Origin: Bacteroidota bacterium
GTDB taxonomy: Bacteria > Bacteroidota > Ignavibacteria > UBA10030 > SZUA-254
Reading direction: 5' to 3'
DNA: 40,547 nucleotides
NCBI GenBank assembly: GCA_035292425.1
Contig: DATDQD010000096.1
Location: 1 to 40,547 of the forward strand
Shown here: positions 14,537 through 40,083 of the stretch, in pieces
How positions within the stretch are numbered: position 1 is the first letter of the stretch
Layout: each line of letters starts with the position of its first letter
The notes under the pieces: generated by a model
Database searches by the model: none
Seen by the model: the letters and a program-made list of their open reading frames with translations, nothing else
Told to the model about the DNA's origin: nothing
Made by a program: the position numbers and the translations under genes

Positions 14537-14568
14537 AAAATCGTCTCCTCTGCCAATTTGGATGCGAT

Positions 14569-25437: not shown

Positions 25438-25659
25438 ATGTCCACAGACCCGAAACCCCACCCCAATCACAAGGAGTACATTCGAATTCTACGCCGGATG
25501 ACATCGGAGCAGCGACTGCTCAAAGCATTTGAGTTGACGGACCTTGGGAGACGCCTTTTCATGGATGGCCTCCGCCGCCGGCATCCCCGGCTCGCCGGTC
25601 AGCAGTTACGAGCCCTCTACCTGGAACGCCTCTCCCTATGTCACAACAGGAATTATTGA
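25438..25659 (+). CDS. Small (73 aa) helical protein, partner of the downstream nucleotidyltransferase-fold gene
   Basis: An ATG-initiated ORF whose last 22 nt overlap the next gene. It is basic and predicted helical (EQRLLKAFELTDLGRRLFMDGLRRRHP). No family was recognised with confidence. Confidence 0.5.
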   Translation: MSTDPKPHPNHKEYIRILRRMTSEQRLLKAFELTDLGRRLFMDGLRRRHPRLAGQQLRALYLERLSLCHNRNY

Positions 25660-26201: not shown

Positions 26202-26234
26202 GAAGAAGTCAAATGGCAGAACTGCCGGATAACG

Positions 26235-26262
26235 AAATGGCCCGGATATCCCGGGCCATTTT
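26235..26262 (+). terminator. Rho-independent terminator candidate
   Basis: A perfect 11-bp stem AAATGGCCCGG / CCGGGCCATTT (26235-26245 and 26251-26261) with a 5-nt loop atatc, ending in a short T run, 34 nt after the stop at 26201. Confidence 0.6.
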
Positions 26263-26583
26263 CGCTTGGTAGCGGGGGCAGGCTTCATCCTGCACCTACA
26301 GACTGCCATTCGGATATAGTATGTACAGAATATTTTGGAATTTGAGTGCATTCTGCTCTATTGATACTCTTTATACGTTTATTGTGCACCACCGTTAAAA
26401 TGATTACTTTCACTCATTCACTGTTCCTACTGCCACGCTGTGAAAGGAAGGGCTCTCCGCAGTGTCGAACCTTCATTTCTGCCCCGCCATCGGTCTCTCC
26501 GATGATATTTTATTCCTAAACTGCTTACCCTCTCACCCATCGGATCCATCTTGTCATTTCCCCCCTGAGCGCAGAACAGGCCG

Positions 26584-29037
26584 ATGCTAAAATCCACGCT
26601 CAAGAACATATTACCCTGGCTTTCTATCCGGAGTAAGCTCATCATTGCTTTCGTCGGACTTTCCATTGTTCCGCTTGCCCTGGTCGGTTTATACAGTATT
26701 TATTTGAATGTCCGGACAATGGAGAAAACCGCCCTTGAGAATCTCACGCACGATGTTCATACCATCCGGGAAAATACTGCAAATTTTCTTGGCAGCATCG
26801 AAAGCGACCTCAGGGTTCTGCGAAATTCGTCGCCGCTTGATCGTCTCATCACGGTCCTCGAGCGGAAATCCCCCGCCCAGACCAAAGTGATTCTCGACAA
26901 TCTCCAATCTGAAGTATTATCCTTTGCGCAAACGAAGCAGATTTATTACCAAATCAGAGTTGTGGACGATGACGGAGACGAACTGTTCCGTATCGAAACA
27001 GTGGACGTTACGGACACGGCATCGATCTACCGGATGGCTGGATCGACTGAGCTGCGGCATGCACGCGAATCATTTTATTTCCTCCTTATCGATCGTCTCA
27101 GAAAAGACCAAATTGCATTTGCACCGGGAGAGCTTGTGGATGACCAGAATCGAAGGATCCCGGTCATCAGTTTTGCGATGCCGCTTATCGGATCACGGAC
27201 CAGGGTCGGCACTCTCATCGCCAATGTATTTGCAAAAAATCTTTTCCGCGTCATCGAAGCAAACCGCCATCTCGAAGTCCAGGGAAAGATCGTTCTCGTA
27301 AACAGCGATGGCCATTATCTCTATCATTCCGAGAAGAAAAAGGACTGGAACAGACTCCTGGCATCACGCGAAGAAGATAATCTCCAGCATGATTACCCGG
27401 GTTCTACTGTTGCGGCGATTCTTTCAGGGAACGAGGGTACTGTCGCAGAAGGGGTCGATGAGATAGTCTCCTATGGTCCACTGTTCTCTACGACCGTTGG
27501 TGATAAAGTTACGCCCGGTTTTACGATGCCTTATTTCGCCTTTGAAAGTGTTCCCAAAGAATTTGTCCTGGGACCGGTACGTTCTTTCGCCTGGACATTT
27601 GCAAGTTTTCTCGGGGTGTTTCTCCTTCTGGCGATCGGGTTGGGATTGTTGGCGACCAGACAATTTACCAGACCTATCGCCGAGTTACACCATGGGGCTG
27701 CCATCATCTCGAATGGGAACTACGGCCAGCGACTTCGCGTGGATACACACGACGAAATCGAAAAACTTGCGGAGCAATTCAATGCCATGGCAGCGTCACT
27801 TGAATCGCATGAACATGAGATCCAGCATCACCGGACGAAGCTCGAAGAGATGGTGAGGAAGCGAACCTTCGAGTTGAATGAAGAGAAGACGAAACTCCAG
27901 GCGATACTCGATCATGTGCCAAGCGCCATCGTTTTATTGGATAAGGATTTTCGAATCCGGAGCGCCAGTGCCGCCTTCTCAACGATCACGGGACGTCGAT
28001 TCGAGGAAGTGGGCGGCAAGGACTGTGAGGCGGTGTTTTTCAATAACAGCTTTTGTCTGGAGTGTGTGTGCAGAAAGGCGATGGCGACCGGCAAGATCGA
28101 AGGCCATGTGGATCAGACGTATGATCATAAATTGGGTGAACGGTTCATTGAACACATTGCGATTCCGATGCATGACAATGGAGAGGTTGATTCTATCCTC
28201 GAGATCATCACCGATATCACAGAGCGCAAGAGATTCGAAAAAAACCTTCTCCAGGCCGAGCGGCTTGCGGCCGCAGGCGAGATGTCGGCAATTATTGCAC
28301 ACGAGTTCCGCAACTCGCTCACTTCGATCAAGATGATCCTGCAGCTTCATGCCGAGTCGAAGAATCTGAATCGCTCGGAGAGGAAGTCGCTCGACGTAGC
28401 GCTGGATTCAATCGACCAGATGGAGAACATCGTCGCAGAGTTGCTTAACTTTGCCCGTCCGAAGCCGATGGAGGTCCACGTCAAATCATTGAACACCATC
28501 GTTGTGGAGAGTTTGGCCTTCGCTCACCAACGGATATCGAAACAGAATATCTCCGTTAAGAAAATCCTGGATGCAGAGTTACCCCCATTCCCTCTCGACG
28601 AACCGTTGATGAAAGAATCGATCATGAACGTATTGATTAATGCCGCACACGCCATCGACAACGATGTTCGGAAGACGAACCTGGGAGTAATCCAAATCCT
28701 CACCAGGCGGGAATGTCTCCGAAAGACGCTGCGAGACTTTGGCATCGACAAAAGCTGGAGGAGGGACGCCTCAAATCCGGTAGGAGCGGAAATTATCCTG
28801 CCGAAAGGCACTGATTGTGCCGTAATTGAAATCCACGATAACGGCTCCGGCATCGAACGTCAATTTCTCCCTCGAATCTTTGATCCGTTCTTCACGACGA
28901 AAACCAACGGTACGGGACTCGGCCTGCCCATGGTGAAGCGGACCGTAAACGCCCACGGCGGGATCGTCGCGGTGAGCAGCACGGTACACAAAGGAACTAC
29001 GGTGAAGTTATATTTGCCCCTTCACCATGAAGCGTGA
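26584..29037 (+). CDS. Membrane sensor histidine kinase (large periplasmic Cache-like domain, HAMP, PAS, HisKA, HATPase_c)
   Basis: Two TM helices (residues ~19-40 and ~335-358) flank a ~295-aa extracytoplasmic domain. The HAMP region is RPIAELHHGAAIISNGNYGQRLRV...EIEKLAEQFNAM. The PAS domain carries a 4-Cys cluster. The H-box is IAHEFRNSLTSI, the N box NVLINAAHAI, and the G boxes are DNGSGI and TNGTGLGL. Confidence 0.9.
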   Translation: MLKSTLKNILPWLSIRSKLIIAFVGLSIVPLALVGLYSIYLNVRTMEKTALENLTHDVHTIRENTANFLGSIESDLRVLRNSSPLDRLITVLERKSPAQTKVILDNLQSEVLSFAQTKQIYYQIRVVDDDGDELFRIETVDVTDTASIYRMAGSTELRHARESFYFLLIDRLRKDQIAFAPGELVDDQNRRIPVISFAMPLIGSRTRVGTLIANVFAKNLFRVIEANRHLEVQGKIVLVNSDGHYLYHSEKKKDWNRLLASREEDNLQHDYPGSTVAAILSGNEGTVAEGVDEIVSYGPLFSTTVGDKVTPGFTMPYFAFESVPKEFVLGPVRSFAWTFASFLGVFLLLAIGLGLLATRQFTRPIAELHHGAAIISNGNYGQRLRVDTHDEIEKLAEQFNAMAASLESHEHEIQHHRTKLEEMVRKRTFELNEEKTKLQAILDHVPSAIVLLDKDFRIRSASAAFSTITGRRFEEVGGKDCEAVFFNNSFCLECVCRKAMATGKIEGHVDQTYDHKLGERFIEHIAIPMHDNGEVDSILEIITDITERKRFEKNLLQAERLAAAGEMSAIIAHEFRNSLTSIKMILQLHAESKNLNRSERKSLDVALDSIDQMENIVAELLNFARPKPMEVHVKSLNTIVVESLAFAHQRISKQNISVKKILDAELPPFPLDEPLMKESIMNVLINAAHAIDNDVRKTNLGVIQILTRRECLRKTLRDFGIDKSWRRDASNPVGAEIILPKGTDCAVIEIHDNGSGIERQFLPRIFDPFFTTKTNGTGLGLPMVKRTVNAHGGIVAVSSTVHKGTTVKLYLPLHHEA

Positions 29038-30442
29038 CGACAAGATCGGAGCCAGCGTCCTGGTCGTCGACGACGACGAGAAAATTCTCTTCGCCTTTCA
29101 GGAAGTACTGAGGAAAGACGGTCACAGGTGCATCGTGGCCAGGAACGGCGAAGAGGCGCTGGGTCAGCTGCTCAAGGAGTCTCCCGATCTGGTGTTCATG
29201 GATATTACGATGCCGAAGCTCGATGGCATCGAGACCCTGAAGCGGATCAAGCAGCACGGGAGTCTCCTTCCGGTGATCATTATCACCGGCTACGGAACGA
29301 TGCAGACGGCGATCAGGGCGGTGCAGAGCGGGGCGTTTGAGTATCTCACCAAGCCGCTGGATGTCGAGAAAATCCGGGAGGTGACAAACAGGGCGATTTA
29401 TGCTCTCAATACCAGAGCGGCGGGGTTGAAGGAAGTTGATGTATACAGGGCGGATGTCGTGGACCGATATGACCTTGTGGGTCGAAGCGACAAGATGCAG
29501 GAAGTCTACAAGCTGATCGGCTCCATCTCGACGACGCCAAATCATACGTCGGTCTTGATTACGGGTGAGAGCGGGACAGGGAAAGAGCTCGTGGCCAGAG
29601 CCATTCATGCCAACGGCACGAATTTCGATGAGCCTTTCATCGGCATCAATTGCACTACCTTGCCGGAATCGTTGCTGGAATCAGAACTGTTCGGATACGA
29701 AAAGGGGGCGTTTACCGGCGCAACCGACCGTAAACTGGGTAAATTCGAGTTTGCAGGGAAAGGTACCATTTTCCTCGACGAAATTATAAACCTCTCGCCC
29801 AACCTCCAACAAAAACTGCTTCGGGTACTCCAGGAGAGAGAATTCGAACGACTGGGCGGAAACACCGCCATACACGCAGAGGGTCGATTCATCGCCGCCA
29901 CGAATCGTGACATCGACCACGAAGTGAAAAAGGGATTTTTCAGGGAAGACCTGTTCTATCGACTGAATATTGTCACGATCCACCTTCCTCCTTTGCGCGA
30001 ACGGAAGGAGGACATACCGATGCTCGCAAGCTATTTCCTGATGAAGTACAACGGCCATCTGAAACGGTCGGTAAAGGGATTTTCGGACGACGCCATGAGC
30101 CTTCTCCTGTCCTACAGGTATCCGGGGAATGTCCGGGAGCTCGAAAATCTCATCGAACGCGCGGTGATGCTGACGAAGGGAGATGTCGTCCTCCCGGAAA
30201 TGATCGAAGATAAACTCGCAACGTCGGTGAAAGGATCCGACACACTTCCAATCATCAGCCCGCTGTTCAGCCAATCCCGCGAACATATCCTGATGCTGTT
30301 TGAAAAACAGTTCCTGATCGGGCAGCTGATAAAGCATCACGGCAACGTAACCGCCGCCGCGAAAGCATCCGGGATGACCAGACAGAATTATCAGCGACTG
30401 ATGAAGAAGTACGACCTCAGCGCAGATCCTTATCGAACGTAA
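29027..30442 (+). CDS. Sigma-54-dependent NtrC/Fis-family response regulator (REC - AAA+ - HTH)
   Basis: REC features are VLVVDDDE, DLVFMDITMP and KP. AAA+ features are Walker A GESGTGKE, the sigma-54 contact loop GAFTGA, and GTIFLDEI. A C-terminal Fis-type HTH is present (GNVTAAAKASGMTRQNYQRLMKKY). The gene overlaps the kinase gene by 11 nt. Confidence 0.92.
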   Translation: MKRDDKIGASVLVVDDDEKILFAFQEVLRKDGHRCIVARNGEEALGQLLKESPDLVFMDITMPKLDGIETLKRIKQHGSLLPVIIITGYGTMQTAIRAVQSGAFEYLTKPLDVEKIREVTNRAIYALNTRAAGLKEVDVYRADVVDRYDLVGRSDKMQEVYKLIGSISTTPNHTSVLITGESGTGKELVARAIHANGTNFDEPFIGINCTTLPESLLESELFGYEKGAFTGATDRKLGKFEFAGKGTIFLDEIINLSPNLQQKLLRVLQEREFERLGGNTAIHAEGRFIAATNRDIDHEVKKGFFREDLFYRLNIVTIHLPPLRERKEDIPMLASYFLMKYNGHLKRSVKGFSDDAMSLLLSYRYPGNVRELENLIERAVMLTKGDVVLPEMIEDKLATSVKGSDTLPIISPLFSQSREHILMLFEKQFLIGQLIKHHGNVTAAAKASGMTRQNYQRLMKKYDLSADPYRT

Positions 30443-30487
30443 CGATGCCGGTCTGAACAAACCTCTTTTCTCCTCCCTGCTTTTCTG

Positions 30488-30542
30488 AATTTACACGCGG
30501 ATTTTCCGCCGGGCCGCCAATTTACACTGGCCACGGTGTAAA
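30488..30542. promoter_or_regulatory. Candidate enhancer (UAS) for the NtrC-type activator
   Basis: A perfect inverted repeat TTTACAC-N8-GTGTAAA (30521-30527 and 30536-30542), plus an extra direct AATTTACAC copy at 30488-30496, 31 nt upstream of the copy at 30519-30527. The palindrome centre lies about 107 nt upstream of the sigma-54 -24 element. Confidence 0.4.
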
Positions 30543-30636
30543 CTCTTTCTTGGCACTATCCGATCCGGCCTCTACCGGCTCTTCGCCAATTCCTCCAATC
30601 CGGCACGTTTCAACGCTTCATTTTTATCCGACGATC

Positions 30637-30651
30637 TGGCACGGTCCTTGT
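30637..30651 (+). promoter_or_regulatory. Sigma-54 (-24/-12) promoter candidate
   Basis: TGGCACGgtccTTGT compared with the consensus TGGCACG-N4-TTGC(A/T). The spacing is exact and there is one mismatch in the -12 element (GT for GC). It lies 38 nt upstream of the ATG at 30689 and directly downstream of a sigma-54 activator gene. Confidence 0.5.
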
Positions 30652-30688
30652 CTTTCCAGAGACACATCGGAACGAGCCGGAGTCAGGA

Positions 30689-31081
30689 ATGAGGAAACCG
30701 ACGGTTTTGGTCGTCGATGACGACGAGAATATTCTCTCCGCGTTCAACGATTTTCTGAAAAAAGAGCGCTGTGAGATGATCGCCGCCTCGAGTATGGATG
30801 AGGCAATGGGGATGCTTGAGCGGCGTCGCGTGGATGTTCTCATTGCCGACGTCAGGCTCAAGGCACAGTCGGGCGTCAAGCTCACCCTGGAGGTAAAACG
30901 CAGGCATCCCGGGATTTCAATCATTCTCATCACGGGATATCCGGAGCTCGTCAGCGAATGCGACGCTAAATCGTCCGGCGCGGATTATTTCTTCCTGAAA
31001 CCTCTGAACATTGACAAGCTCCGGGAAGCCGTGTCAATATGTTTGACGCATCGGAATACAGAACCTAAAATGCCGGTATAA
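30689..31081 (+). CDS. Stand-alone CheY-like receiver-domain protein
   Basis: It is 130 aa with the acidic pocket VVDDDE, the phospho-acceptor context VLIADVRL, the conserved T (ILITGY) and the conserved K (FLKPL). No output domain is present. Confidence 0.85.
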   Translation: MRKPTVLVVDDDENILSAFNDFLKKERCEMIAASSMDEAMGMLERRRVDVLIADVRLKAQSGVKLTLEVKRRHPGISIILITGYPELVSECDAKSSGADYFFLKPLNIDKLREAVSICLTHRNTEPKMPV

Positions 31082-31117
31082 TTAAACTCATGTATAACTC
31101 CTGGGAAGGACAACACC

Positions 31118-32365
31118 ATGAAGACCTTTGTGATCTGCGTTCTGGCGGCCGCCTGCCTGCTCGTGCTCTTCGTCGAAGACGGATGGGGCATCCCATCGTT
31201 TTCGCGAAAGTACAAGACCAGCTGCAGCACCTGCCACTACGCCTTTCCGATGCTCAATGCATTCGGTAAAGCGTTTAAAAATAACGGCTACCGTTATCCC
31301 GGTGGCGATGAGAATTATCGGAAGGAAGAACCGGTCAGTCTTGGAGCGGAAGGCTACAAGAAAGTATGGCCTGATGCCGTCTGGCCGGGTGATATGCCCG
31401 GCACCTCGCCGCTCTCGGTGCTTGCAGTCGGCCGGATCAATTACAGCGCACTGAGCAGCGTGAAGTGGGAATTCGAATTCCCGCATGAACTCGAAGTGCT
31501 TTATGCCGGCACGATAGGGGAAGACTTTTCGTTTTTTGGCGAGGTTGAGGTCGAGAATGAAGGCAATGAAACGGAAATCGCGTTCCCGTTTGCGCTGCAA
31601 TTCGATCCCGACCCCGGTTTTCATGTGCGGGTAGGTATGGTCAATGCCGATCCGACGCCTACACATCTCCGGCTTACCAGGAATCATTACAACATGGCGA
31701 GTTTAAGAACCCGGAACGGATGGCGGTTCCGCGATGAACAGATCGGACTGGAAGTGTGGGGTGCCGCCAATGGCGCCGGGGACCGGGGCGGTTTCACCTA
31801 TCGGGCAGGTGTGGTCAACGGACAGGGGATCAGCGATTTGAACCCGCAAAAGGATGTCTATGGGAAACTGACCTATAAGATCGGAGGGTTGGGTGAGATT
31901 GGGGGTACGGAGGGCGCGGAGAGCGAGGCATCGGAATTTTACGTTGACAACTCGATAACCCTCGGCGGTTTTTTTTACAGGGGGATTGCATCAAAAGAGG
32001 GGGCAGACGATGAAGACTTTACGGTGTTTGGCGGCGATGTTGATCTCTGGTACGGCCGCTTCATCGCCAACGCTTCGGTGATGTCGATGAACTCCGACAT
32101 TCCGAATACCGCTGAGCGCAAATCACTGGTGTATTATGCCCAGGGTAACTATGTCCTTTATCCGTGGCTCATCGGTCTCGTGCGGTATGAGTGGGAGGAC
32201 AAAGACACCGACAATGATGCCGTCAAGCCCGTGAATGCAGTTATCCCCGGCGTGACGGTCGTCGCCCGGGCAAACGTAAAATTCATGCTGGAGTTTAAAA
32301 AGTTTCTGGACGACGTGAACGAGAATAACGATACTTTCGTCCTGCAAATGAATTTTGGCATCTAA
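31118..32365 (+). CDS. Cyc2-like fused monohaem cytochrome c - outer-membrane beta-barrel porin (candidate)
   Basis: A signal peptide (MKTFVICVLAAACLLVLFVEDGWG) is followed immediately by IPSFSRKYKTSCSTCHYAFPMLNAFGKAFKNNGYRYPG, which carries a single CXXCH. About 370 aa of alternating hydrophobic/polar beta-strand-like sequence follow (EFEFPHELEVLYAG, FSFFGEVEVENEG, EIAFPFALQFD, FMLEFKKF, FVLQMNFGI). The Cyc2 assignment comes from recalled family features and is not verified. Confidence 0.55.
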   Translation: MKTFVICVLAAACLLVLFVEDGWGIPSFSRKYKTSCSTCHYAFPMLNAFGKAFKNNGYRYPGGDENYRKEEPVSLGAEGYKKVWPDAVWPGDMPGTSPLSVLAVGRINYSALSSVKWEFEFPHELEVLYAGTIGEDFSFFGEVEVENEGNETEIAFPFALQFDPDPGFHVRVGMVNADPTPTHLRLTRNHYNMASLRTRNGWRFRDEQIGLEVWGAANGAGDRGGFTYRAGVVNGQGISDLNPQKDVYGKLTYKIGGLGEIGGTEGAESEASEFYVDNSITLGGFFYRGIASKEGADDEDFTVFGGDVDLWYGRFIANASVMSMNSDIPNTAERKSLVYYAQGNYVLYPWLIGLVRYEWEDKDTDNDAVKPVNAVIPGVTVVARANVKFMLEFKKFLDDVNENNDTFVLQMNFGI

Positions 32366-32462
32366 TGAATGCATGGTGAATGATAAATCCGGGGGAGCAG
32401 TGTCCTCCGCTCCCCCGGATCGTATTGTCAACATGTGAATGTCTTATTGAAAGGAAAACCTC

Positions 32463-33056
32463 ATGAAACACGCGATCATCGCATTGCTCGGTTTCTCTGT
32501 TTGTCTGGTGTGCGGTGCGTACGCCGGAGACATCAAAGGCAAGGTTAAGGCCAAAGGAGCCAGACACGGCGGCGACGCCGTCGTCTACATCGACTCGATC
32601 CCGGGGAAGAAATTCGACCCCCCGAAGGAACACGCCAAGATGGACCAAAAAAACCTGACGTTCATACCGCACGTTCTTCCGATCCTCGCGGGAACGGCAG
32701 TGGACTATCTCAATAGCGACGACGTACTCCACAATGTCTTCACCCCCGAAAAATGCGCCGAAAAGTTCAACCTTGGTACGTGGCCCAAAGGGCAGGTGCG
32801 GTCTTATACTTTTAAAGAGCCCGGATGTATTCCCGTGATGCTGTGCAACGTCCATCCCGAGATGGAAGCGTATATCCTTGTTCTTGGAACACCGTACTAC
32901 GCGGTCAGCGCAAAGGATGGAAGCTATGCCCTGAAGGATATTCCTCCCGGAAAATACACCTTAAAGATCTGGCATGAAAAACTCAAGGGTGACGCGAAAG
33001 AAATCACGGTGCCTGAATCGGGAGAGATGGAGATGAATTTTGAGATAACGAAGTAA
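32463..33056 (+). CDS. Periplasmic cupredoxin-like (type-1 Cu candidate) protein with a C-terminal CarboxypepD_reg-like beta-sandwich
   Basis: A signal peptide is present. The cupredoxin_1-like pattern is LTFIPHVLPILAGTAVDYLNSDDVLHNVF ... MLCNVHPEMEAYILV, giving candidate ligands His/Cys/His/Met with amicyanin-like C-x2-H-x2-M spacing. The tail SAKDGSYALKDIPPGKYTLKIWHEKL is typical of the carboxypeptidase-regulatory-like fold. Confidence 0.6.
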   Translation: MKHAIIALLGFSVCLVCGAYAGDIKGKVKAKGARHGGDAVVYIDSIPGKKFDPPKEHAKMDQKNLTFIPHVLPILAGTAVDYLNSDDVLHNVFTPEKCAEKFNLGTWPKGQVRSYTFKEPGCIPVMLCNVHPEMEAYILVLGTPYYAVSAKDGSYALKDIPPGKYTLKIWHEKLKGDAKEITVPESGEMEMNFEITK

Positions 33057-33101
33057 TTCCCCGGTCATTCGGAAGGATCAAGGGCGGCGTGATGTCGGGA
33101 G

Positions 33102-35006
33102 ATGCACATGTCTGATCATGTGAAATTCGTCAACCTCGAATGGCTTGATTCAAATTTTCCCTGCATGGCTGCCTGCCCCGTTCATACGGAAGCGGGCCGG
33201 TATGTAGCGCTGATCGAAGAAGGTCGGTACCGGGAAGCATATCACGTCGCCCGGCGTCCAAATCCGTTTGCTTCGATCTGCGGACGCATCTGCGCGGCGC
33301 CGTGTGAGCCCGCATGCCGGCGCGGCAAGGCTGATCAACCCATTGCCATCCGTGCGCTGAAACGCTTTGTGTGTGAACGCTTCGGAGTCGAAAGCATGAT
33401 CGACCTCGAAAAATTGAAAGAGGTCTTCGGCAAAACGGTGAGGAAGAATGGTATTAAAGTCGCCGTCCTGGGCGCCGGACCCGCAGGACTTTCCTGCGCT
33501 CATGATCTCGCCCTGTTGGGCTATGAGGTAACGGTATTTGAAGCCCAGTCGGTTGCCGGAGGAATGTTGAGACTCGGTGTTCCGGAGTACCGCCTCCCCC
33601 GGGAACTGATCCGGCTTGAGGTCAACGGTATTCTCAGTCTCGGAGTCGAACTTAAACTGAACTCTGCCATCGGCCGGAATTTTACACTATCCGACCTCGA
33701 AGAGCAGGGCTATCGCGCCATCTTTATCGCAATCGGCGCTCACAAGAGCCGTGACCTGCGAATTGAAGGTGTCGAGCTTGACGGTGTCCTCCGGGCCGTC
33801 GACTTTCTCCTTAATGTGAACCTTGGCTACCGTGTCGAATTGGGGAACAAGGTCATCGTGATCGGCGGCGGCAATGTGGCGATCGATGTCGCCCGGACGG
33901 CTGCCCGGCAGGATACAATCGAGGTCGGTCATGTAACGGAAGTGGCCGAGGCGCTGGATGTTGCCCGCTCGGCTGTTCGCTTCGGCGCGAAGGAAGTGCA
34001 CATGGTTTGCCTCGAAGACTGGCGGGAGATGCCTTCTTCACGGGAGGAAATCACCGAAGCATTGGAAGAACGGATTCAGATCCATCCGCGCAAAGGTCCG
34101 GGCAAAATCATCGGACACAACGGCCGCGTTGTGGGATTTGAAACGATCGATTGTGTATCGGTCTTCGATGAACAGGGCCGCTTCAATCCGAAGTTCGCTC
34201 CGGGCACGGAGAAGTTCATGGAAGCCGATACGGTGATCATGGCGATCGGTCAGACATCCGACCTTTCATGGATTCGACCCGAAGATAAAATCGGGATCAC
34301 CCCACGGAACACCATCAAAGTCGATCCGCGCACCCTCGCCACTACAGCACCCGGCATCTTCGCGGGCGGCGATGTCTCGTTCGGTCCACGAAATGCCATC
34401 GATGCGGTCGCCAACGGAAAAAAAGCAGCTGAATCCATTCACCGGTATATCACGGGGAACGATGCTCAGCGAATCGCCCCGGAGTCCGGTGATCGTGATG
34501 TGGAAATCGTTGTCTACGACAAGGCACACTGTAACCGTGAGTGGGGCTATGAGAAGAAACACCGCATCCCCATTCCGTCACTGGCGATCGATCGGCGCAT
34601 CGGGGTTGCGCAGGTGGAGCTCGCGTACACCGAACACCAGGCCCGGGAGGAGGCGTCCCGCTGTCTCCACTGCTGGATCAATACTATTTTCGAGGCAGAG
34701 GGCGAGGGAACCGGAACGGAGTGCATTCTCTGCGGCGGATGTGTGGATATTTGCCCCGAGAACTGTATCGATCTCGTTGTGCTCGATCGGGTCGATGTTG
34801 ATCAATCGATGATCGTCGAACTTGAAAATGAATATGACGTCGTGCTTACAGGAGAAACCGAAACGTCGACGGGTTCGGTCATGATCAAAGATGAAGACAT
34901 TTGCATCCGTTGCGGACTCTGTGCGATGCGCTGTCCAGTCGGATGCATTACCATGGAAGGATACACCGTTTCGCTGACAAAACCCGAGGTAACGATTGGC
35001 CATTAG
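33102..35006 (+). CDS. GltD/NfnB-like NAD(P)H-dependent FAD oxidoreductase with an N-terminal FeS domain and a C-terminal 2x[4Fe-4S] ferredoxin domain
   Basis: Fer4_20-like Cys pattern (CMAACPVHTE...ICGRICAAPCEPACRRG). Two Rossmann motifs (VAVLGAGPAGLSCAHDLALLGYEVTVFE and VIVIGGGNVAIDVARTA) and AGGD are present. The C-terminal cluster motifs are CILCGGCVDICPENC and CIRCGLCAMRCPVGC. There is no signal peptide. The start may be the ATG at 33108 (GGGAGA Shine-Dalgarno). Confidence 0.85.
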   Translation: MHMSDHVKFVNLEWLDSNFPCMAACPVHTEAGRYVALIEEGRYREAYHVARRPNPFASICGRICAAPCEPACRRGKADQPIAIRALKRFVCERFGVESMIDLEKLKEVFGKTVRKNGIKVAVLGAGPAGLSCAHDLALLGYEVTVFEAQSVAGGMLRLGVPEYRLPRELIRLEVNGILSLGVELKLNSAIGRNFTLSDLEEQGYRAIFIAIGAHKSRDLRIEGVELDGVLRAVDFLLNVNLGYRVELGNKVIVIGGGNVAIDVARTAARQDTIEVGHVTEVAEALDVARSAVRFGAKEVHMVCLEDWREMPSSREEITEALEERIQIHPRKGPGKIIGHNGRVVGFETIDCVSVFDEQGRFNPKFAPGTEKFMEADTVIMAIGQTSDLSWIRPEDKIGITPRNTIKVDPRTLATTAPGIFAGGDVSFGPRNAIDAVANGKKAAESIHRYITGNDAQRIAPESGDRDVEIVVYDKAHCNREWGYEKKHRIPIPSLAIDRRIGVAQVELAYTEHQAREEASRCLHCWINTIFEAEGEGTGTECILCGGCVDICPENCIDLVVLDRVDVDQSMIVELENEYDVVLTGETETSTGSVMIKDEDICIRCGLCAMRCPVGCITMEGYTVSLTKPEVTIGH

Positions 35007-35012
35007 GAAGGA

Positions 35013-35510
35013 ATGATCATGAACGAAGAGCATGCCCGCGGAAAGCATACCACCGGACTTACCACGCGCCGCTATTTTCTCGAAGTCGTCGGGGGCGGCG
35101 CCATCGGCATTGCCGCCGCCGGCAGTGTTGTCCTGACCGCACAATTTCTCTCCCCCAATGTTTTGCTCGAACCTTCATTGAAATTCAAGGCCGGTTCTCC
35201 GGAGAATTATGCACCAGCATCCGTCACGTTGCTGAAAGAGCAGAAGGTCTTCATCGTCCGGGCACGAGAAGGCTATTTCTATGCTCTGTCCGCGATCTGC
35301 ACGCATCTCGGCTGTATTGCGAACTGGAAGCCGGAAGACGGCATCATCGCCTGTCCTTGTCACGGCAGCAAGTTCGGACAGGATGGAAAAGTTCTCGACG
35401 GGCCTGCGCCGGGACCATTGCCGAGGTTTTCCATGACCCTGGATGAACAGGGGCGACTGGTTATTGACAAAGGTGTCCCGGGAGGTGAAGAAGAAATTTT
35501 AAAGGTGTAA
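35013..35510 (+). CDS. Rieske [2Fe-2S] subunit with a Tat signal
   Basis: A twin-arginine leader ([21 protein letters not shown]) and cluster boxes CTHLGC and CPCHGSKF. The gene lies only 6 nt after the flavoprotein stop. The ATG at 35019 has better spacing from the AGGAAGGA Shine-Dalgarno. Confidence 0.9.
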
Positions 35511-35520
35511 GGGATTGACG

Positions 35521-36231
35521 ATGAAAAAAATGTTTGAACGGATCTTCCGAACCCAGGTGTGGCGCTCGATGTTCCGTCACGGTGTGCCGGACTCCAACCG
35601 CACACGCGCCGAAATGATATTCTATAATTTCTTCCTGCATGTCCACCCGACGAAGGTACGAAAGCGATCCGTGAGATTCGCCTACACGTGGGGACTCGGC
35701 GGAATATCAATGGGCTTGTTCATCGTTCTCACGCTCACCGGGGCGCTGCTGATGCTCTACTATCGTCCATCGGTACCGCAAGCGTATATGGACATGAAGG
35801 ACTTGGAATTCGTGGTTTCTTCCGGTCAATTCTTAAGGAACATGCACCGCTGGGCCGCGCATGCCATGGTAGCGGTTGTTTTTCTCCACATGCTTCGGGT
35901 CTTTTACACGGGTTCGTACCGCCCCCCGAAAGAATTCAATTGGGTCATCGGCGTTCTTCTTCTGGTCTCGACGATCCTCCTGAGCTACACCGGATACCTC
36001 TTACCGTGGGATCAACTATCGTTCTGGGGAATCTCCGTCGGAACCAACATGGTGAGAGCGATGCCGTTCGGGCTGGGGGAAAAGATTTCGTTTCTCCTGC
36101 TGGGCGGGAATGTCGTGGGTGAAAATGCGCTCGTAAGGTTTTACGTCCTGCACTGTTTCATCATCCCCCTGATAGCGGTGATACTGATGGGAATCCATTT
36201 TTGGAGAGTGCGGAAGGACGGCGGGGTATGA
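35521..36231 (+). CDS. Cytochrome b6-type (N-terminal, four-helix) cytochrome b subunit
   Basis: The helix B pair is H-x13-H ([15 protein letters not shown]) and the helix D pair is H-x14-H ([16 protein letters not shown]), which is the b6f/Bacillus-type spacing. [15 protein letters not shown] is also present. I chose the ATG at 35521 (AAGGG Shine-Dalgarno). The track ORF starts at TTG 35515. Confidence 0.88.
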
Positions 36232-36281
36232 CAGGATTATCACAAGCCGATCCCCGACGGTGGATCATCGAATGAGCGATC

Positions 36282-36980
36282 ATGGACAAAGATTTTACCA
36301 TCGACACGAGCCCCGACAGTAAAAAAACACCCAGGCGGATAGCGTTCGTCAAAAGTCGAACCGCAGCCCGGGTGAACATTGATGACGAAGAGATGGTGAT
36401 GACATTCCCCAATCTCGTCATCAAGGAGGTCATCGCCTTTCAAATCATGGTTATCATTCTTGCCGTCATATCGTTACTGGTGGATGCACCCCTGGAGTGG
36501 ATTGCAAATCCCGAACATACGCCGAACCCGGCAAAGGCACCATGGTATTTTCTCGGACTGCAGGAGCTGTTGCATTATTTCCCCCCCGTGGTAGGCGGTG
36601 TGATCCTCCCCGCGCTCGCAATCATCGCGTTGATCGTGATCCCATACTTTCGGATCAATATCAAACGCGAAGGTCTCTGGAAAAAACATAGGAAACGAAT
36701 GTTCATCGGCGTCATCGTAGTTGTTGGAATTTTATCGCTTGTCCTCGTCGCGTTCAAAGTGTTTTCCCTGCTGATCCCGACGCTGGCAGTTACCGCCATG
36801 ATGCTCATCCCGTATTTTTCCAGGAAAGAAGCCGGTCTCGTCGGCTGGCTTGGTTCCCGTCCCCTTTCATGGTGGATCATGACGTGGTTCATCATCATCG
36901 CCGTCGTTCTTACGACAATCGGTACACTGTTCCGGGGCCCGGAGTGGAGCTGGACGGTCCCCTGGGAAGGAATATATTGA
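36282..36980 (+). CDS. Cytochrome b C-terminal domain / subunit IV-like membrane protein (extended)
   Basis: NPAKAPWYFLGLQELLHYFPP matches the P(E/D)WY-type Qo-site motif of subunit IV / cytochrome b C-terminal domains. A ~50-aa hydrophilic N-terminal extension precedes about 5 hydrophobic helices. Confidence 0.8.
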   Translation: MDKDFTIDTSPDSKKTPRRIAFVKSRTAARVNIDDEEMVMTFPNLVIKEVIAFQIMVIILAVISLLVDAPLEWIANPEHTPNPAKAPWYFLGLQELLHYFPPVVGGVILPALAIIALIVIPYFRINIKREGLWKKHRKRMFIGVIVVVGILSLVLVAFKVFSLLIPTLAVTAMMLIPYFSRKEAGLVGWLGSRPLSWWIMTWFIIIAVVLTTIGTLFRGPEWSWTVPWEGIY

Positions 36981-36981
36981 G

Positions 36982-38925
36982 GTGCCGGGCCTTATGAAAT
37001 ATTTTGCGGCTTCGAGTCTGACGTTTCTGATCGTCCTTGCCATTGTGCCGGTCAAAGATTATTTCCGTGAGTGGAAGCGGTATCAATACGAATACAACGA
37101 TCTCATCAAGACGCTGCCGCAGCGCGTCAAACCGGCAGACATCGGCATCAAACAGCTCTGGGTGAGAAACCTTGAGAAAATTGATCGCTGCGTCACTTGT
37201 CACCTCGGTTTAAAGGAGGAAGCCCTGCGCGCATCACGTCAACCGTTCCGGACGCACCCCCACATCTACCACGACATTGAAGAGTTCGGCTGCACGATTT
37301 GTCACGAGGGTCAGGGTCTCTCGACGACATTCAAAGAATCCGTCGGCAGAGTGAAGTACTGGGACAGGCCCATCTTTCCACGCGAATTCATGGAGGCCTC
37401 ATGCGCCAAGTGTCATAAAGAAAAGCGGGTCCCACAAGCACCGATCCTCACGTCGGGTCGAAAGCTCATTGAAGAGTCCAACTGTGCGGGCTGCCACACG
37501 ATCGACGGTTACCCTAAACATTGGATTCCCGCTCTTGACGGTATAGGATCGAAGGTGAACCGGACCTGGCTGGTGAATTGGCTGAAGAACCCGAAAGCGT
37601 ATTTCGCCGGGACGAAAATGCCAAATTTCATGTTGTCGAATGAGGAATCAAATCTCCTGGCCGACTTTCTGATGACATTCACCAAATTTCCCGGGGGGGT
37701 TGTATTACATCCAGTCCCGATTCAACTGGCGGTTTCGACTGATGCAGAGAGAGAGAAGTCGATCGATCTCGGCTCGACACGATTTCGGGAAGCCCGCTGT
37801 ATCAGTTGTCATCCTGTTAACGGGAAAGGAGGATCCGGGGCGACCGATCTTGGTAAGGTCGCCGATAAGGTCGACATGAAATGGCTGTTTAATTATGTTC
37901 AGAGCCCCAAACGGCTTCAGCCGGGCGTCGAAATGCCGAGATACCGTTTTAACGAAAATGAGCTTGCCGGAGTTGTCGCCTACATGCAGAGTGAGTTCAC
38001 GGAAGGGGAAACAGGGGAAAATACGTCTTACGCGCGCGACCCGGCATTTTATGAAAAAGGTCTTGCATTGTACAAGAAATACAACTGCAGCGGATGCCAC
38101 CAACTCGGGGGGATGCTGAAAGCGGAAGAGATGGCGCCGGAACTCACCTTTGTCGGCGACAAGAAAATCTACGAGATTGATTTCGGCGAGTCGACAATCG
38201 GGCAATCGCTTCCCGCGTATCTCTTCACAAAACTCAAAGCCCCCCGTTCTTTCTCGTCCTCCATGAAGATGCCCAGCTATGAATTCAGCGACGAGGAGGC
38301 GCAGGCTGTCACAACGGCCTTACTCGGCAACATCAGTGACCAGTTACCCGGGGAATTCATCGTCCGTCCGGCTCAGGTCAGATCCTACCAACCTCAGGGA
38401 GAATTTGGCAAGTTGGTGGATGATCTGGCGTGTTTTGGATGTCACACGATGTTCGGGCGGGGCAGATTGATCGCAACCGATCTGACACTCGAAGCGAGCC
38501 AGGCTCAGAGAAAATGGATAGAAGATTACTTCAAAGTGCCGTATTCACTCCGACCGGTCTTGACTGATAGGATGCCGAACTTGTTCCTGTCGGAGTCAGA
38601 AATCAGGGTGCTGGTCGACTATATGGAACAGGTATTCCTTGCAGATAGCCTGGAGCGTCACATCGAGATCGATGAGACCAAAATCGCAAAAGGGGAAATC
38701 CTGTATTTCGAAAAGTACGGCTGTCATGCATGTCACCAGCTCAGACAGAAAGGCGGATATGTCGGCCCCCCCCTGGACAAGATCGGTTCCAGACTGAAAC
38801 CAAATTGGATTTTCCACTGGCTGAAAAACCCCCGGGCCTTTAAGCCGGAATCGATCGAGCCCGACAATCATTTATCGGATGAAGAGGCTGAGGCGCTAAC
38901 GGCGTTTCTCATGACGGTTCAGTGA
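36982..38925 (+). CDS. Membrane-anchored octahaem c-type cytochrome (3 closely spaced haems plus 5 class-I-like cytochrome c modules)
   Basis: Eight CXXCH motifs: CVTCH, CTICH, CAKCH, CAGCH, CISCH, CSGCH, CFGCH and CHACH. An N-terminal TM helix is present (YFAASSLTFLIVLAIVPV). Five repeated modules follow the pattern CxxCH...L..(I/V)G.K......W......P........MP...L...E...L..(F/Y)(L/M). The GTG start lies 1 nt after the previous stop. An alternative ATG is at 36994. Confidence 0.85.
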   Translation: MPGLMKYFAASSLTFLIVLAIVPVKDYFREWKRYQYEYNDLIKTLPQRVKPADIGIKQLWVRNLEKIDRCVTCHLGLKEEALRASRQPFRTHPHIYHDIEEFGCTICHEGQGLSTTFKESVGRVKYWDRPIFPREFMEASCAKCHKEKRVPQAPILTSGRKLIEESNCAGCHTIDGYPKHWIPALDGIGSKVNRTWLVNWLKNPKAYFAGTKMPNFMLSNEESNLLADFLMTFTKFPGGVVLHPVPIQLAVSTDAEREKSIDLGSTRFREARCISCHPVNGKGGSGATDLGKVADKVDMKWLFNYVQSPKRLQPGVEMPRYRFNENELAGVVAYMQSEFTEGETGENTSYARDPAFYEKGLALYKKYNCSGCHQLGGMLKAEEMAPELTFVGDKKIYEIDFGESTIGQSLPAYLFTKLKAPRSFSSSMKMPSYEFSDEEAQAVTTALLGNISDQLPGEFIVRPAQVRSYQPQGEFGKLVDDLACFGCHTMFGRGRLIATDLTLEASQAQRKWIEDYFKVPYSLRPVLTDRMPNLFLSESEIRVLVDYMEQVFLADSLERHIEIDETKIAKGEILYFEKYGCHACHQLRQKGGYVGPPLDKIGSRLKPNWIFHWLKNPRAFKPESIEPDNHLSDEEAEALTAFLMTVQ

Positions 38926-39441
38926 ATGAACGCATTTGAAATGTACTCCACGCCAATCAAAGCGGAGATTACGGGAGGTGTGCGACGCGATGTGCATGCA
39001 CAATTCGGCGATATGAAAATCTATCGTGGAATAACCCGTCTCAGAATAGTGCCAGCGGTCTGTTTATCATTGAGCATCGTATGTTGTTCAGAGAACCGTT
39101 CACATTCAGAGGACAAGACATCCGTAAAGGACTTGCGAACGTTGCTCACCTACGAGGAGCGACAAGGCAAACAACTTTATACTAAGTATTGCGCCGTCTG
39201 CCACGGTCAGGAAGGGAAAGGCGATGGTTTCAATGCCTTCAATTTGGACACGAAACCAAGGGATTTTACCGATTCCATCTACATGAACGCGCTGAGCGAT
39301 GAGAGACTGATCGAGACAATCAATGAGGGTGGAAGAGGTGTTAATCGATCTTCCCTCATGCCGTCGTGGAATGGAAGCTTGAAGAGTGTGGAAATAGATT
39401 ATGTCGTATCGTACATCCGCCGGTTCAGGTATTCAGATTGA
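38926..39441 (+). CDS. Monohaem class-I c-type cytochrome (probable lipoprotein or periplasmic)
   Basis: LYTKYCAVCHGQEGKGDG ... SSLMPSWNG (CXXCH plus a distal Met context). The ATG abuts the previous stop (TGAATG). An internal ATG at 39013 gives a cleaner signal/lipobox-like N-terminus (MKIYRGITRLRIVPAVCLSLSIVCCSE). Confidence 0.85.
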   Translation: MNAFEMYSTPIKAEITGGVRRDVHAQFGDMKIYRGITRLRIVPAVCLSLSIVCCSENRSHSEDKTSVKDLRTLLTYEERQGKQLYTKYCAVCHGQEGKGDGFNAFNLDTKPRDFTDSIYMNALSDERLIETINEGGRGVNRSSLMPSWNGSLKSVEIDYVVSYIRRFRYSD

Positions 39442-39535
39442 TGCATCATCACCCTCCCATATTCTCTGATAGTGATTGGTTCATCCACTTCATATATCGG
39501 CAGAAAATCATCGAAGGGTCATTAAACCTTACCGG

Positions 39536-39742
39536 TCATATTATTTCTCGTAGGACATTGAATCCGCGCGTGATCTGCCCCCGATCACCCTCCGCCCGGT
39601 AGCGTGCCGGCAACCGGTAGAGCTGACGGGTCCCCAGCCCCAGGGTGGTGGCAGCTTCGTCAACCGTGAGCCGACGGGCGTTCACCTGCCCGATCGACTT
39701 CAAGCGATCTCGTTCGTTGGCGCTCATCGTCAGTATGCGCAT
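39536..39742 (-). mobile_element. Remnant of an IS transposase gene (N-terminal HTH of ISNCY/rve-integrase-type transposases only)
   Basis: MSANERDRLKSIGQVNARRLTVDEAATTLGLGTRQLYRLPARYRAEGDRG resembles the conserved N-terminus (..E..RL.vi..v...rlt...AA..LGLS.RQv.RL..RYr.eG..GL) of about 450-aa transposases. Here the ORF stops after 68 codons and only about 95 nt remain before the next gene, so the catalytic domain is absent. Confidence 0.55.
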
Positions 39743-40083
39743 CTTTCCGGGTCTCCATCCTGTGGTGGAATGCCCGAAATTGCCACTTTATACGGACATT
39801 TCTATCGAGTCCAAAACCTGACATTTTTAAAGAGTTACGACACAGTTGGTATGCTTTCGGGGTCGCGGTATTGACTTTCTCAGGTATGGACCGTACCTTC
39901 CCAGTATCCGGTTTCTCATCGCTCATCATCCGGATATCGTAACTCCGAGCATTTCTCCTTCCCGGCCTGTGAGGCTGTGGAAATCCTGTCGGCACGCAGA
40001 TCTCCTTTCATGCGGGATCATCTTGTAACAGAGCTCATCCGGCCTCCCGGGACGGCGGACTGATCATCTCGAAAAAGTTCTTC

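Follow-up and report, generated by a model that had tools for sequence, protein, structure and literature searches.

We analysed a 40,547-bp stretch of bacterial DNA (the window), which is an entire contig of an NCBI metagenome-assembled genome (MAG) labelled Bacteroidota bacterium and whose nearest relatives are MAGs of the Ignavibacteria, and found in it eleven consecutive genes for an electron-transfer system together with its regulators. The cluster joins a predicted Cyc2-type porin-cytochrome, a cupredoxin, a Rieske/cytochrome b complex resembling those of anammox bacteria, an NfnB/GltD-like iron-sulfur (FeS) flavoprotein and two c-type cytochromes. One conserved operon under two-component and sigma-54 control is the best explanation of the gene order, of its recurrence in other genomes and of a promoter-like element that precedes the structural genes. 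As to function, we tentatively favor, at somewhat less than an even chance, a system in which electrons from Fe(II) would enter through the Cyc2-like protein and the cupredoxin, and in which the flavoprotein-bearing complex would produce reduced nicotinamide adenine dinucleotide (phosphate) [NAD(P)H] by bifurcation of menaquinol.

Gene order and conservation of the cluster

All eleven open reading frames (ORFs) of the cluster lie on the forward strand between positions 26584 and 39441, as given by the ORF list and its translations (Table 1). The intergenic distances, in gene order, are -11, 246, 36, 97, 45, 6, 4, 50, 1, and 0 nucleotides (nt). The haem-binding motif CXXCH occurs once in the 415-amino-acid (aa) protein (at residue 36), eight times in the 647-aa protein and once in the 171-aa protein. 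An earlier note on this DNA had described eleven co-directional genes with such gaps and haem counts, and its coordinates, spacing and CXXCH numbers were all reproduced. The gene identities that it proposed were likewise borne out, with the Pfam and NCBIfam scans, AlphaFold2 models, Foldseek comparisons and profile searches in agreement. Its reading of the set as one predicted component per compartment also stands: a porin-cytochrome for the outer membrane, carriers for the periplasm, a complex for the inner membrane and a leaderless flavoprotein for the cytoplasm. Topology, including the signal-peptide call, was taken throughout from a simple hydropathy scan.

To assess conservation, an alignment of the Cyc2-like protein was used as bait with one genome per GTDB species, which returned 79 loci, and these were mapped by tblastn using the eleven window proteins. 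Counts for the downstream complex were restricted to the 47 loci with at least 6 kb of sequence downstream. The flavoprotein, Rieske and cytochrome b genes were present together at 34 of these 47 loci, representing at least eight phyla; Rieske and cytochrome b without the flavoprotein were found at 5 loci and neither at 8. The full cluster was observed in MAGs labelled Ignavibacteria/Bacteroidota, Calditrichota, Zixibacteria, Fidelibacterota, Glassbacteria, Gemmatimonadales, Thermoanaerobaculia and other Acidobacteriota, and Deferrimicrobium, and the genome loci came mostly from neutral groundwater and sediments. Upstream, the kinase and activator genes preceded the Cyc2-like gene in 40 and 43 of 58 loci, respectively, and the receiver gene was found mainly in the Ignavibacteria/Bacteroidota versions of the cluster. 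The cupredoxin gene immediately followed the Cyc2-like gene in 71 of 73 loci.

The reverse search, in which cytochrome b6 served as bait against metagenome contigs, returned the order cupredoxin-flavoprotein-Rieske-b6-subunit IV-octahaem-monohaem on many Joint Genome Institute (JGI) contigs, and a Cyc2 motif was present in the ORF upstream of the cupredoxin gene on 11 of the 18 contigs where this could be tested. Many of the contigs, judging by their identifiers, are presumably from peat, bog or soil samples. The earlier note had staked its proposal on the co-occurrence of the flavoprotein/Rieske/cytochrome b trio with a porin-cytochrome and a cupredoxin, and such co-occurrence is what both the 34 genome loci and the reverse-bait contigs display.

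We consider it extremely improbable that the eleven genes are adjacent by chance or belong to several unrelated transcription units. The 246-bp gap between the regulator and structural genes would fit separate units, as would one genome (loci L002/L057) where the kinase-activator pair with the best match is found on the downstream side of the structural genes. However, conservation of the order in at least eight phyla effectively refutes this explanation, and the gaps between the structural genes measure only 0 to 97 nt. In addition, the ORF after the monohaem cytochrome c gene lies on the opposite strand in the majority of loci with sufficient downstream sequence. The arrangement is far from chance because the identical order was found again in dozens of species from many phyla.

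Table 1. Genes and promoter-region elements of the cluster, with positions in the 40,547-bp window
Feature	Coordinates	Strand	Basis
Sensor histidine kinase (HK)	26584..29037	+	Pfam: HK sensor/dCache, HAMP, PAS, HisKA, HATPase
NtrC-type sigma-54 enhancer-binding response regulator	29027..30442	+	Receiver, AAA+ domain with GAFTGA, HTH_8
Inverted repeat TTTACAC-N8-GTGTAAA	30521..30542		Perfect; in the 246-bp gap, upstream of the sigma-54-like element
Sigma-54 -24/-12-like element TGGCAC-N5-TTGTC	30637..30652	+	37 nt upstream of the receiver gene
Single-domain CheY-like receiver	30689..31081	+	Response_reg, 3.5e-22
Cyc2-type fused monohaem cytochrome-porin, 415 aa, predicted outer membrane	31118..32365	+	Signature, AlphaFold2, Foldseek
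Periplasmic type-1 copper cupredoxin (predicted), 197 aa	32463..33056	+	Invariant ligand set, profile, AlphaFold2/Foldseek
Cytoplasmic NfnB/GltD-like FeS flavoprotein	33102..35006	+	Pfam: Fer4_20, Pyr_redox_2, Fer4_7
Tat (twin-arginine translocation)-exported, membrane-anchored Rieske [2Fe-2S] protein	35013..35510	+	TRRYFLE Tat motif and anchor; anammox Rieske/b type
Split cytochrome b6-type subunit	35515..36231	+	Cytochrome_B, 3.3e-43; aligns with b6
Enlarged subunit IV, 232 aa, Qo (quinol oxidation site) motif APWY	36282..36980	+	Cytochrom_B_C
Membrane-anchored octahaem cytochrome c, 647 aa	36982..38925	+	Eight CXXCH, Pfam, N-terminal transmembrane helix
Monohaem class I cytochrome c, 171 aa	38926..39441	+	One CXXCH; Pfam Cytochrome_CBB3/Cytochrom_C

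The Cyc2-type porin-cytochrome and its cupredoxin partner

No Pfam or NCBIfam model matched the 415-aa protein. One search yielded 636 relatives, and an exhaustive profile search of a library clustered at 50% identity yielded 3,529 representatives of the Cyc2-like family at E <= 1e-3. There was no named Cyc2 among these 3,529 representatives, and a look-up of the cluster members behind ten remote matches gave only "hypothetical protein." The protein was compared with the published description of Cyc2 (Keffer et al. 2021, PMC8406198), which comprises a signal peptide, one CXXCH, the motif AxPxFAR[Q/K][T/Y] upstream of it, PxL four residues downstream, a length of >365 aa and a 16-strand porin. 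Residues 1 to 19 form a hydrophobic N terminus, and in the AlphaFold2 model a helix at residues 2 to 18 precedes the mature domain. The N-terminal signature reads GIPSFSRKY-KTS-CSTCH-YAF-PML, in which CSTCH is the sole CXXCH. Comparison with the specific motif showed Ser in place of Ala, leaving the window protein one residue short of a strict string screen based on PMC8406198. The strict motif was present in 43 of 79 relatives, the remainder having Ser for Ala or Trp for Phe, and exactly one CXXCH was present in 77 of the 79, the other two being truncated. Pro44 and Leu46 of the PxL motif were invariant in the family alignment, and paralogues of a second cluster type (type B, below) carry PKR at this site.

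AlphaFold2 predicted a barrel of ~16 strands over residues 99 to 415, a block with predicted local distance difference test (pLDDT) values mostly between 70 and 90. The haem domain (residues 19 to 97) was modelled with low confidence, as expected without the haem. The top PDB matches of the model in Foldseek were 16-strand general porins, with E values from 4e-11 (~1e-11) and target-normalised TM-scores of 0.58 to 0.66. Together with the single CXXCH, the modelled barrel and its porin matches are consistent with the beta-barrel porin-cytochrome that the earlier note had predicted. Apart from the conservative Ala-to-Ser change, the sequence and the predicted fold agree with every element of the Cyc2 description, supporting assignment of the protein to the Cyc2 type. 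In distant syntenic relatives, the canonical motif PSYARQTGxxCSGCH was found at the equivalent position upstream of a cupredoxin gene, and these proteins align with the window protein over the cytochrome domain. Three members of the Cyc2 family are Fe(II) oxidases (PMC8406198).

The 197-aa product of the next gene belongs to no NCBIfam family, and its only Pfam matches were a weak C-terminal CarboxypepD_reg and an fn3_3 barely over the cut-off. Within its family, His90, Cys128, His131, and Met134 are invariant and form the set His...Cys-x2-His-x2-Met. A profile search found a cupredoxin domain at an E value of 3.4e-5 and amicyanins at ~0.01. The AlphaFold2 model (pLDDT 81) was matched by Foldseek to amicyanin, pseudoazurin, and plastocyanin at E values of 1e-5 to 1e-4. 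The ligand set and the model support a type-1 cupredoxin that is predicted to bind copper. From the secondary structure, the copper domain apparently sits inside a carboxypeptidase-regulatory-like beta-sandwich.

The Rieske/cytochrome b complex and its flavoprotein

The flavoprotein consists of an N-terminal 2x[4Fe-4S] domain, flavin adenine dinucleotide (FAD) and NAD(P) folds, and a C-terminal 2x[4Fe-4S] ferredoxin domain, with the motifs GAGPAG and GGGNVA and two CxxCxxCxxxC motifs. Hydropathy revealed neither a signal peptide nor a transmembrane helix. Its best PDB matches were 9bov/9bp5, followed by NfnI and NfnB, at E values of 1e-89 to 1e-52.

For the Rieske protein, the top PDB matches were 9rk4 (3e-25) and 9rk3 (4e-22), and the Rieske subunits of cyanobacterial and plant b6f complexes followed at ~4e-15. 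These two entries are Kuste4569 and Kustd1480, respectively, of the anammox bacterium Kuenenia (PMC12954380). The second Rieske box, CPCHGSxF, has Ser in 47 of 47 and Phe in 46 of 47 orthologues; Ser119 and Phe121 of the window protein correspond to the pattern of Kustd1480, for which a potential of +335 mV was measured. Residue pattern and matches support the assignment of the window Rieske to the high-potential type of the anammox lineage. The kinship with NAD(P)-bearing anammox Rieske/b complexes to which the earlier note had pointed was further upheld by the flavoprotein, which shares its best PDB match with Kuste4570.

In the cytochrome b6-type subunit, the haem ligands His111, His125, His213, and His228 are invariant, as are His42 of the N-terminal extension (44 of 44) and His116 of helix B. 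Cys214, beside His213, is kept in 86% of the cytochrome b sequences and is the only Cys of the window protein. The Cys that carries haem cn is missing, the position of b6 Cys35 being Gly60 in the window cytochrome b. In Kuenenia, His43 (Kuste4571) and His62 are modelled as ligands of an extra haem b. The numbering of His42 is close to that of Kuste4571 His43, and by this analogy the residue recalls the Kuenenia extra-haem ligands. The proposal that His42 is a flavoprotein-specific adaptor was rejected, as versions of the cluster that are free of the flavoprotein also have His42.

Subunit IV has four transmembrane helices by hydropathy and a fifth at residues ~163 to 179 by eye. Its Qo region reads KAPWYFLGLQE, and APWY replaces PEWY in 38 of 38 orthologues. 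On this motif, the complex falls within a clade of cytochrome b, the APWY clade, that has yet to be characterised (Kao and Hunte 2014, PMC4122944). The octahaem cytochrome is composed of four c7/c3-like haems and four class I domains. The monohaem cytochrome c, encoded by the final gene of the conserved unit, starts with an anchor or a lipoprotein-like signal.

The nearest NCBIfam models for three subunits were ExtP for cytochrome b (score 273.8, equivalog cut-off 290), ExtQ for subunit IV (60.2, cut-off 150), and ExtS for the multihaem cytochrome c (92.7, cut-off 100), all under the cut-off. This likeness to Geobacter proteins favors an outward chain, the main rival of the path that we prefer, which we nevertheless regard as rather unlikely. 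In such a chain, electrons would pass from menaquinol through the Rieske/b complex to the octahaem, the monohaem cytochrome c or the cupredoxin, on to Cyc2 and from there to a soluble high-potential acceptor, while the second electron would make NAD(P)H; candidate acceptors are chelated or acid-soluble Fe(III), Mn(III) complexes and the quinone moieties of humic substances. The ext proteins are reported from proteome studies to be more abundant with Fe(III), and an extI porin mutant implicates the system in selenite and tellurite reduction (PMC5877670). FeGenie regards Cyc2 cluster 3, which iron reducers have, as possibly reductive, and among the relatives of Fe(III) reducers in which He et al. 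report Cyc2-like genes are the Ignavibacteriaceae. On the other hand, all Cyc2 proteins tested so far oxidise Fe(II), and one haem inside a narrow 16-strand barrel cannot reach solid oxides. A type-1 copper and a Ser-type Rieske at about +300 mV would also lie too high for ferrihydrite reduction at the neutral pH of the groundwater and sediment from which most loci come. Under acidic conditions, the potentials of Fe(III) couples suffice for taking electrons from a +300 mV chain, a point in favor of outward flow, as the soil-type contigs of the reverse search presumably include some from acidic peat.

Regulators and promoter

In the sensor kinase, transmembrane helices at residues 19 to 37 and 339 to 357, taken from hydropathy, flank a periplasmic Cache-like sensor domain of ~300 aa. 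Its PAS domain contains a C-x9-C-x2-C triad (Cys481/Cys491/Cys494) that is kept in ~90% of 32 orthologues. The triad may be a site for redox, metal or FeS sensing and, as such, a candidate for what sets the switch-on of the operon. The activator matched Sigma54_activat (1.7e-65) and Response_reg (3.5e-31) in Pfam, and its top NCBIfam models were AtoC, NtrC, and ZraR, with every score under its cut-off.

In 35 of 48 loci, the stretch that separates the activator gene from the first structural gene contains an element equivalent to the sigma-54-like sequence of the window, TGGCAY-N5-TTG[C/A/T], compared with a background of 0.17 per kb. This element is positioned ~450 to 480 nt before the Cyc2-like gene when the receiver gene lies between them and 60 to 130 nt before it when there is no receiver gene. 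The -12 part in the window has GT instead of GC, and across loci this part is often TTGA or TTGT, not TTGC. The GAFTGA activator and the promoter-like element at a conserved position agree with the sigma-54 control that the earlier note had predicted. The inverted repeat upstream of the element has an additional TTTACAC ~30 nt ahead of it, and it could be an activator-binding site or the terminator stem of the regulator genes. As a conserved activator site it was rejected, being absent from all other loci. A scan of the window for sigma-70 promoters and terminators was uninformative, the number of terminators being equal to the shuffled level.

Variants of the cluster

A second form of the cluster, type B, comprises genes for a receiver, a Cyc2-like protein (~35% identical), a cupredoxin, Rieske, cytochrome b, DoxX, subunit IV, a multihaem and a monohaem cytochrome c, and lacks the flavoprotein gene. 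It stands in tandem with the window form, type A, on contig JACQVI010000070.1 (L002/L057), where two kinase-activator pairs lie between them, and three further MAGs each contain paralogous A and B clusters. At four loci, from some Calditrichaceae and others, the Cyc2-cupredoxin pair is followed not by Rieske/b but by a set resembling alternative complex III (ACIII), which consists of a c7-type cytochrome, a molybdopterin-like subunit, an FeS protein and NrfD, plus a homologue of the octahaem cytochrome. Since these complexes interchange beside the Cyc2-cupredoxin pair, the constant core consists of Cyc2, the cupredoxin, a quinone-linked complex and c-type cytochromes, to judge from the gene content of the loci. 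By the same comparison, the predicted NAD(P) module is a frequent specialisation of this core. The retention of Cyc2 and cupredoxin while the complex changes suggests that Cyc2 and the quinone pool exchange electrons.

This retention bears on another explanation, that the complex is a general variant of complex III that supplies NAD(P)H and serves the respiration of oxygen or nitrogen oxides. The Cyc2-like protein would then be an accessory, with a role such as Fe(II) detoxification, sensing or the handling of another small redox-active solute, and iron would not be an energy substrate. Related Rieske/b6/subunit IV/octahaem operons occur with no iron role in Nitrospina, Kuenenia, and Methylomirabilis; the order flavoprotein-b6-subunit IV-Rieske is found in more distant relatives that have neither a Cyc2 nor a cupredoxin gene; and the neighboring genes of the window are an ordinary heterotroph set. 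However, the Cyc2-cupredoxin pair keeps its place next to a quinone-linked complex when an ACIII-like set or a plain Rieske/b takes over that position, which is hard to explain without electron exchange between them, and we judge a general complex III variant to be unlikely.

Several further variations were observed. An insertion of ~4 kb between the cupredoxin and flavoprotein genes was present at three loci and encodes more cupredoxins, a 496-aa membrane protein with a Fer4_5 motif and a COX2-like cupredoxin-cytochrome c fusion; this fusion was seen in eight loci. At six loci from Acidobacteriota and Deferrimicrobium, cytochrome b6 and subunit IV form a single fused protein of 415 to 440 aa. 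A 216-aa protein with a cyclic-nucleotide-binding domain is encoded between cytochrome b6 and subunit IV in some Ignavibacteriales, at five loci (for example, L006, positions 15689 to 16339). The genes that recurrently flank the cluster encode extra cytochromes c, the COX2-like fusion, ACIII-like subunits and more kinases.

Proposed electron path

In the path that we favor, dissolved Fe(II) would be oxidised by Cyc2 at the outer membrane, and its electrons would pass into a high-potential periplasmic pool made up of the cupredoxin, the monohaem and octahaem cytochromes c and the Rieske protein. The membrane complex would join three pools, namely, this periplasmic pool, menaquinone and NAD(P), with the low-potential side of the Rieske/b6/subunit IV complex continuing into the cytoplasmic NfnB/GltD-like oxidoreductase, a predicted association. 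Menaquinol would be bifurcated: one electron would fall to the Rieske/cytochrome/copper pool at about +300 mV and the other would rise through the b haems and FeS clusters to NAD(P)+. The drop from menaquinol (about -70 mV) to the Rieske protein at about +300 mV would free ~370 mV and so pay for the lift of ~250 mV to NAD(P)+. The bifurcation mechanism and the energetic argument are taken from the proposal made for Kuenenia. Menaquinol bifurcation would be the sole direction of benefit to the cell.

The earlier note had suggested that the cluster could by itself carry electrons from Fe(II) as far as NAD(P)H, and this part of its proposal did not stand, as an electron at the Rieske potential of about +300 mV cannot reach NAD(P)+ unless quinol is oxidised at Qo. 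From outside the cluster, the path would need a terminal oxidant and a quinone-reducing step, for example, the flavoprotein-free paralogous (type B) cluster or an ACIII-like complex working in reverse. The cluster is not self-contained because a separate reduction of quinone and a strong oxidant are required; otherwise, the complex would run in the direction that consumes NAD(P)H. A more specific version, in which type A and its flavoprotein-free paralogue, often present in one genome, would be the long-sought "uphill" machinery of neutrophilic iron oxidation, with one Rieske/b complex in reverse driving the Fe(II) electrons into menaquinone, the flavoprotein-bearing complex then lifting them to NAD(P)H by quinol bifurcation, and no part for complex I, is in our view unlikely.

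The opposite use of the complex, confurcation, would bring together on menaquinone at Qo an electron from Fe(II), arriving through the Rieske protein, and one from NAD(P)H, arriving through the b haems. Electrons from Fe(II) would thereby feed a menaquinol-dependent chain, for example, one ending in nitrate reductase, in a mixotrophic Fe(II) oxidation. Confurcation is the sole way for Fe(II) electrons to pass through this complex, and mixotrophic, possibly nitrate-dependent Fe(II) oxidation has been proposed for the Zixibacteria conduit-PetAB cluster. By our own charge bookkeeping, though, it would translocate fewer charges per NAD(P)H than a complex I route that ignores Fe(II), and hence would cost the cell energy. 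We place it low because of this lower yield and consider it very unlikely.

Several observations weigh against Fe(II) entry combined with menaquinol bifurcation. All loci stem from MAGs or metagenome contigs. The hosts are mostly regarded as organoheterotrophs, which would have little obvious need for quinol-driven NAD(P)H, and no terminal oxidase or carbon-fixation gene recurs among the genes flanking the cluster. The haem cn Cys, which is kept in the anammox models, is replaced in the window cytochrome b, and the invariant His42 also occurs in flavoprotein-free versions and hence is no specific adaptor for the flavoprotein.

Surroundings of the cluster in the window

The G+C content is 50 to 56% at positions 26000 to 40000 and 59 to 64% at the neighboring positions 20000 to 25000. 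The lower G+C content of the cluster, together with its patchy distribution over phyla, hints at horizontal transfer. Three probable cargo proteins of the type IX secretion system (T9SS) are encoded at 12638 to 16764 (reverse strand) and 19631 to 25279 (forward strand). Two of them matched Por_Secre_tail, and the third, of 1,882 aa, has beta-helix-like repeats and a sorting-domain-like C-terminal tail, as judged by eye from the translation. Peptidase, glutaminase, and transglutaminase-like genes lie beside the cargo genes and suggest an organoheterotroph context. At 25438 to 26201 (forward strand), two overlapping small ORFs of 73 and 187 aa, the second nucleotidyltransferase-like by eye, may be a toxin-antitoxin pair. 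A fragment at 39536 to 39742 (reverse strand), close to the end of the contig, appeared by eye to be helix-turn-helix or transposase-like. An Rfam scan of the window found no RNA family.

Significance

It is an open problem how neutrophilic iron oxidisers raise electrons that start at about +0.2 V as far as NAD(P)H, and for the NAD(P)-linked Rieske/b complexes known from anammox bacteria the role is so far a proposal. The operon ties both problems into one probably co-regulated unit that is present in at least 34 species-level genomes of eight or more phyla. Its Cyc2-like, cupredoxin and Rieske proteins are defined targets for expression and measurement, and the natural variants, with or without the flavoprotein or with an ACIII-like set, permit comparative tests. 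FeGenie surveys score MAGs of Ignavibacteriales and Zixibacteria for iron-oxidation genes, and such genes are there dominantly Cyc2 (PMC8478452). For interpreting "iron-oxidation genes" where MAGs from aquifers, deep mines, sediments and peat are taken to be those of heterotrophs, the cluster provides a marker set more specific than Cyc2 alone.

If the uphill reading is true, cryptic iron lithotrophy or mixotrophy would be the way of life of many Ignavibacteria, Calditrichota, Zixibacteria, Gemmatimonadota, and Acidobacteriota that are at present considered heterotrophs, and bifurcating Rieske/b complexes of the anammox type would be a widespread bioenergetic device. If electrons flow outward instead, the operon would encode a new kind of high-potential extracellular reductase that is coupled to NAD(P)H formation. 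The operon offers a concrete, testable route by which uncultured bacteria of groundwater, sediment and peat could trade electrons with iron.

Comparison with known systems

The closest counterparts of the membrane complex are the Kuenenia stuttgartiensis complexes Kuste4569-4574 and Kustd1480-1485 (PMC12954380), with which it shares a split b6-type cytochrome b and an enlarged subunit IV. In both, a membrane-anchored multihaem cytochrome c takes the place of cytochrome f or c1, this being hexahaem or octahaem in Kuenenia and octahaem in the window. Common to both is also a leaderless FeS flavoprotein of the NfnB/GltD type, and the best PDB homologue of Kuste4570 is likewise 9bov/9bp5, an NfnABC entry. 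Planctomycetes are among the phyla of the APWY clade (PMC4122944), a comparison made by phylum. Unlike the Kuenenia complexes, the window version has no HAO (hydroxylamine oxidoreductase)-like octahaem partner and no haem cn Cys, and it is preceded by the Cyc2-like and cupredoxin genes and by the sigma-54 two-component system. Its relatives are hosted by members of the FCB (Fibrobacteres-Chlorobi-Bacteroidetes) group, Acidobacteriota and other phyla, which, in contrast to Kuenenia, have no anammoxosome.

The flavoprotein itself resembles NfnB, GltD, and the Bfu-type NfnABC in its N-terminal 2x[4Fe-4S] domain and its FAD and NAD(P)H folds. It differs from these flavoproteins in having an extra C-terminal 2x[4Fe-4S] domain, no partner gene for NfnA or GltB, and a place in a Rieske/b operon. 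In the mechanism proposed here, the bifurcating site would be the quinol site.

Acidithiobacillus ferrooxidans, with its rus operon and the bc1 complex of its petI operon (PMC10654088), also has Cyc2, a periplasmic cupredoxin, c cytochromes and a Rieske/b complex that link iron to quinone and NAD(P). There, the genes lie in separate operons, a canonical bc1 complex is reversed by the proton-motive force and complex I reduces NAD+, and the carriers function under acidic conditions at very high potential. In the window, by contrast, one operon encodes a b6-like complex with its own predicted NAD(P) module. With the Cyc2 proteins of neutrophilic iron oxidisers such as Mariprofundus ferrooxydans PV-1 (PMC8406198), the window protein shares the predicted signal peptide, the single N-terminal CXXCH, PxL, a length of >365 aa and the predicted 16-strand porin, and its upstream motif departs from the Cyc2-specific one by a single residue. 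Its subfamily has FSRKY/FARKY-KTS-C where neutrophilic Cyc2 has FARQTG-xx-C, and its members are all annotated as hypothetical. The window protein also has a fixed cupredoxin partner, whereas none has been described for neutrophilic iron oxidisers.

Clusters that couple an outer membrane conduit to a Rieske/b complex are known from two other groups. In Geobacter sulfurreducens, extHIJKLMNOPQS (PMC5877670) likewise joins an outer membrane porin-like protein and c cytochromes to a Rieske protein (ExtO), a cytochrome b (ExtP) and a membrane subunit (ExtQ). That cluster, however, has a haem-free porin (ExtI) and multihaem outer cytochromes, has no cupredoxin and no flavoprotein, and is linked to reduction of Fe(III), selenite and tellurite. 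The MtrAB and PetAB cluster of Zixibacteria RBG-1, also of the FCB superphylum, shares an outer membrane conduit, mono- and multihaem cytochromes and Rieske/b with the window and was read as serving mixotrophic Fe(II) oxidation (Castelle et al. 2013, PMC3903129). There, a decahaem MtrA inside a large MtrB porin serves as the conduit instead of a monohaem Cyc2, and a cupredoxin, a flavoprotein and a sigma-54 system were not reported for it.

Our literature search, outside which key subscription papers lay, found no published description of the Cyc2-cupredoxin-flavoprotein-Rieske/b6 combination, of its sigma-54 control or of its spread across phyla, and the cluster is not described in the genome papers on Caldithrix abyssi and MBNT15. 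The earlier note was not aware of any description of this gene combination or of sigma-54 control over it. For the exact set of genes this agrees with the literature found, but as a general principle the joining of a conduit to Rieske/b has precedents in Geobacter (PMC5877670) and Zixibacteria RBG-1 (PMC3903129). The modules are all of known kinds, namely, Cyc2, a type-1 cupredoxin, an anammox-type Rieske/b complex and a sigma-54 two-component system, and the novelty would lie in their combination.

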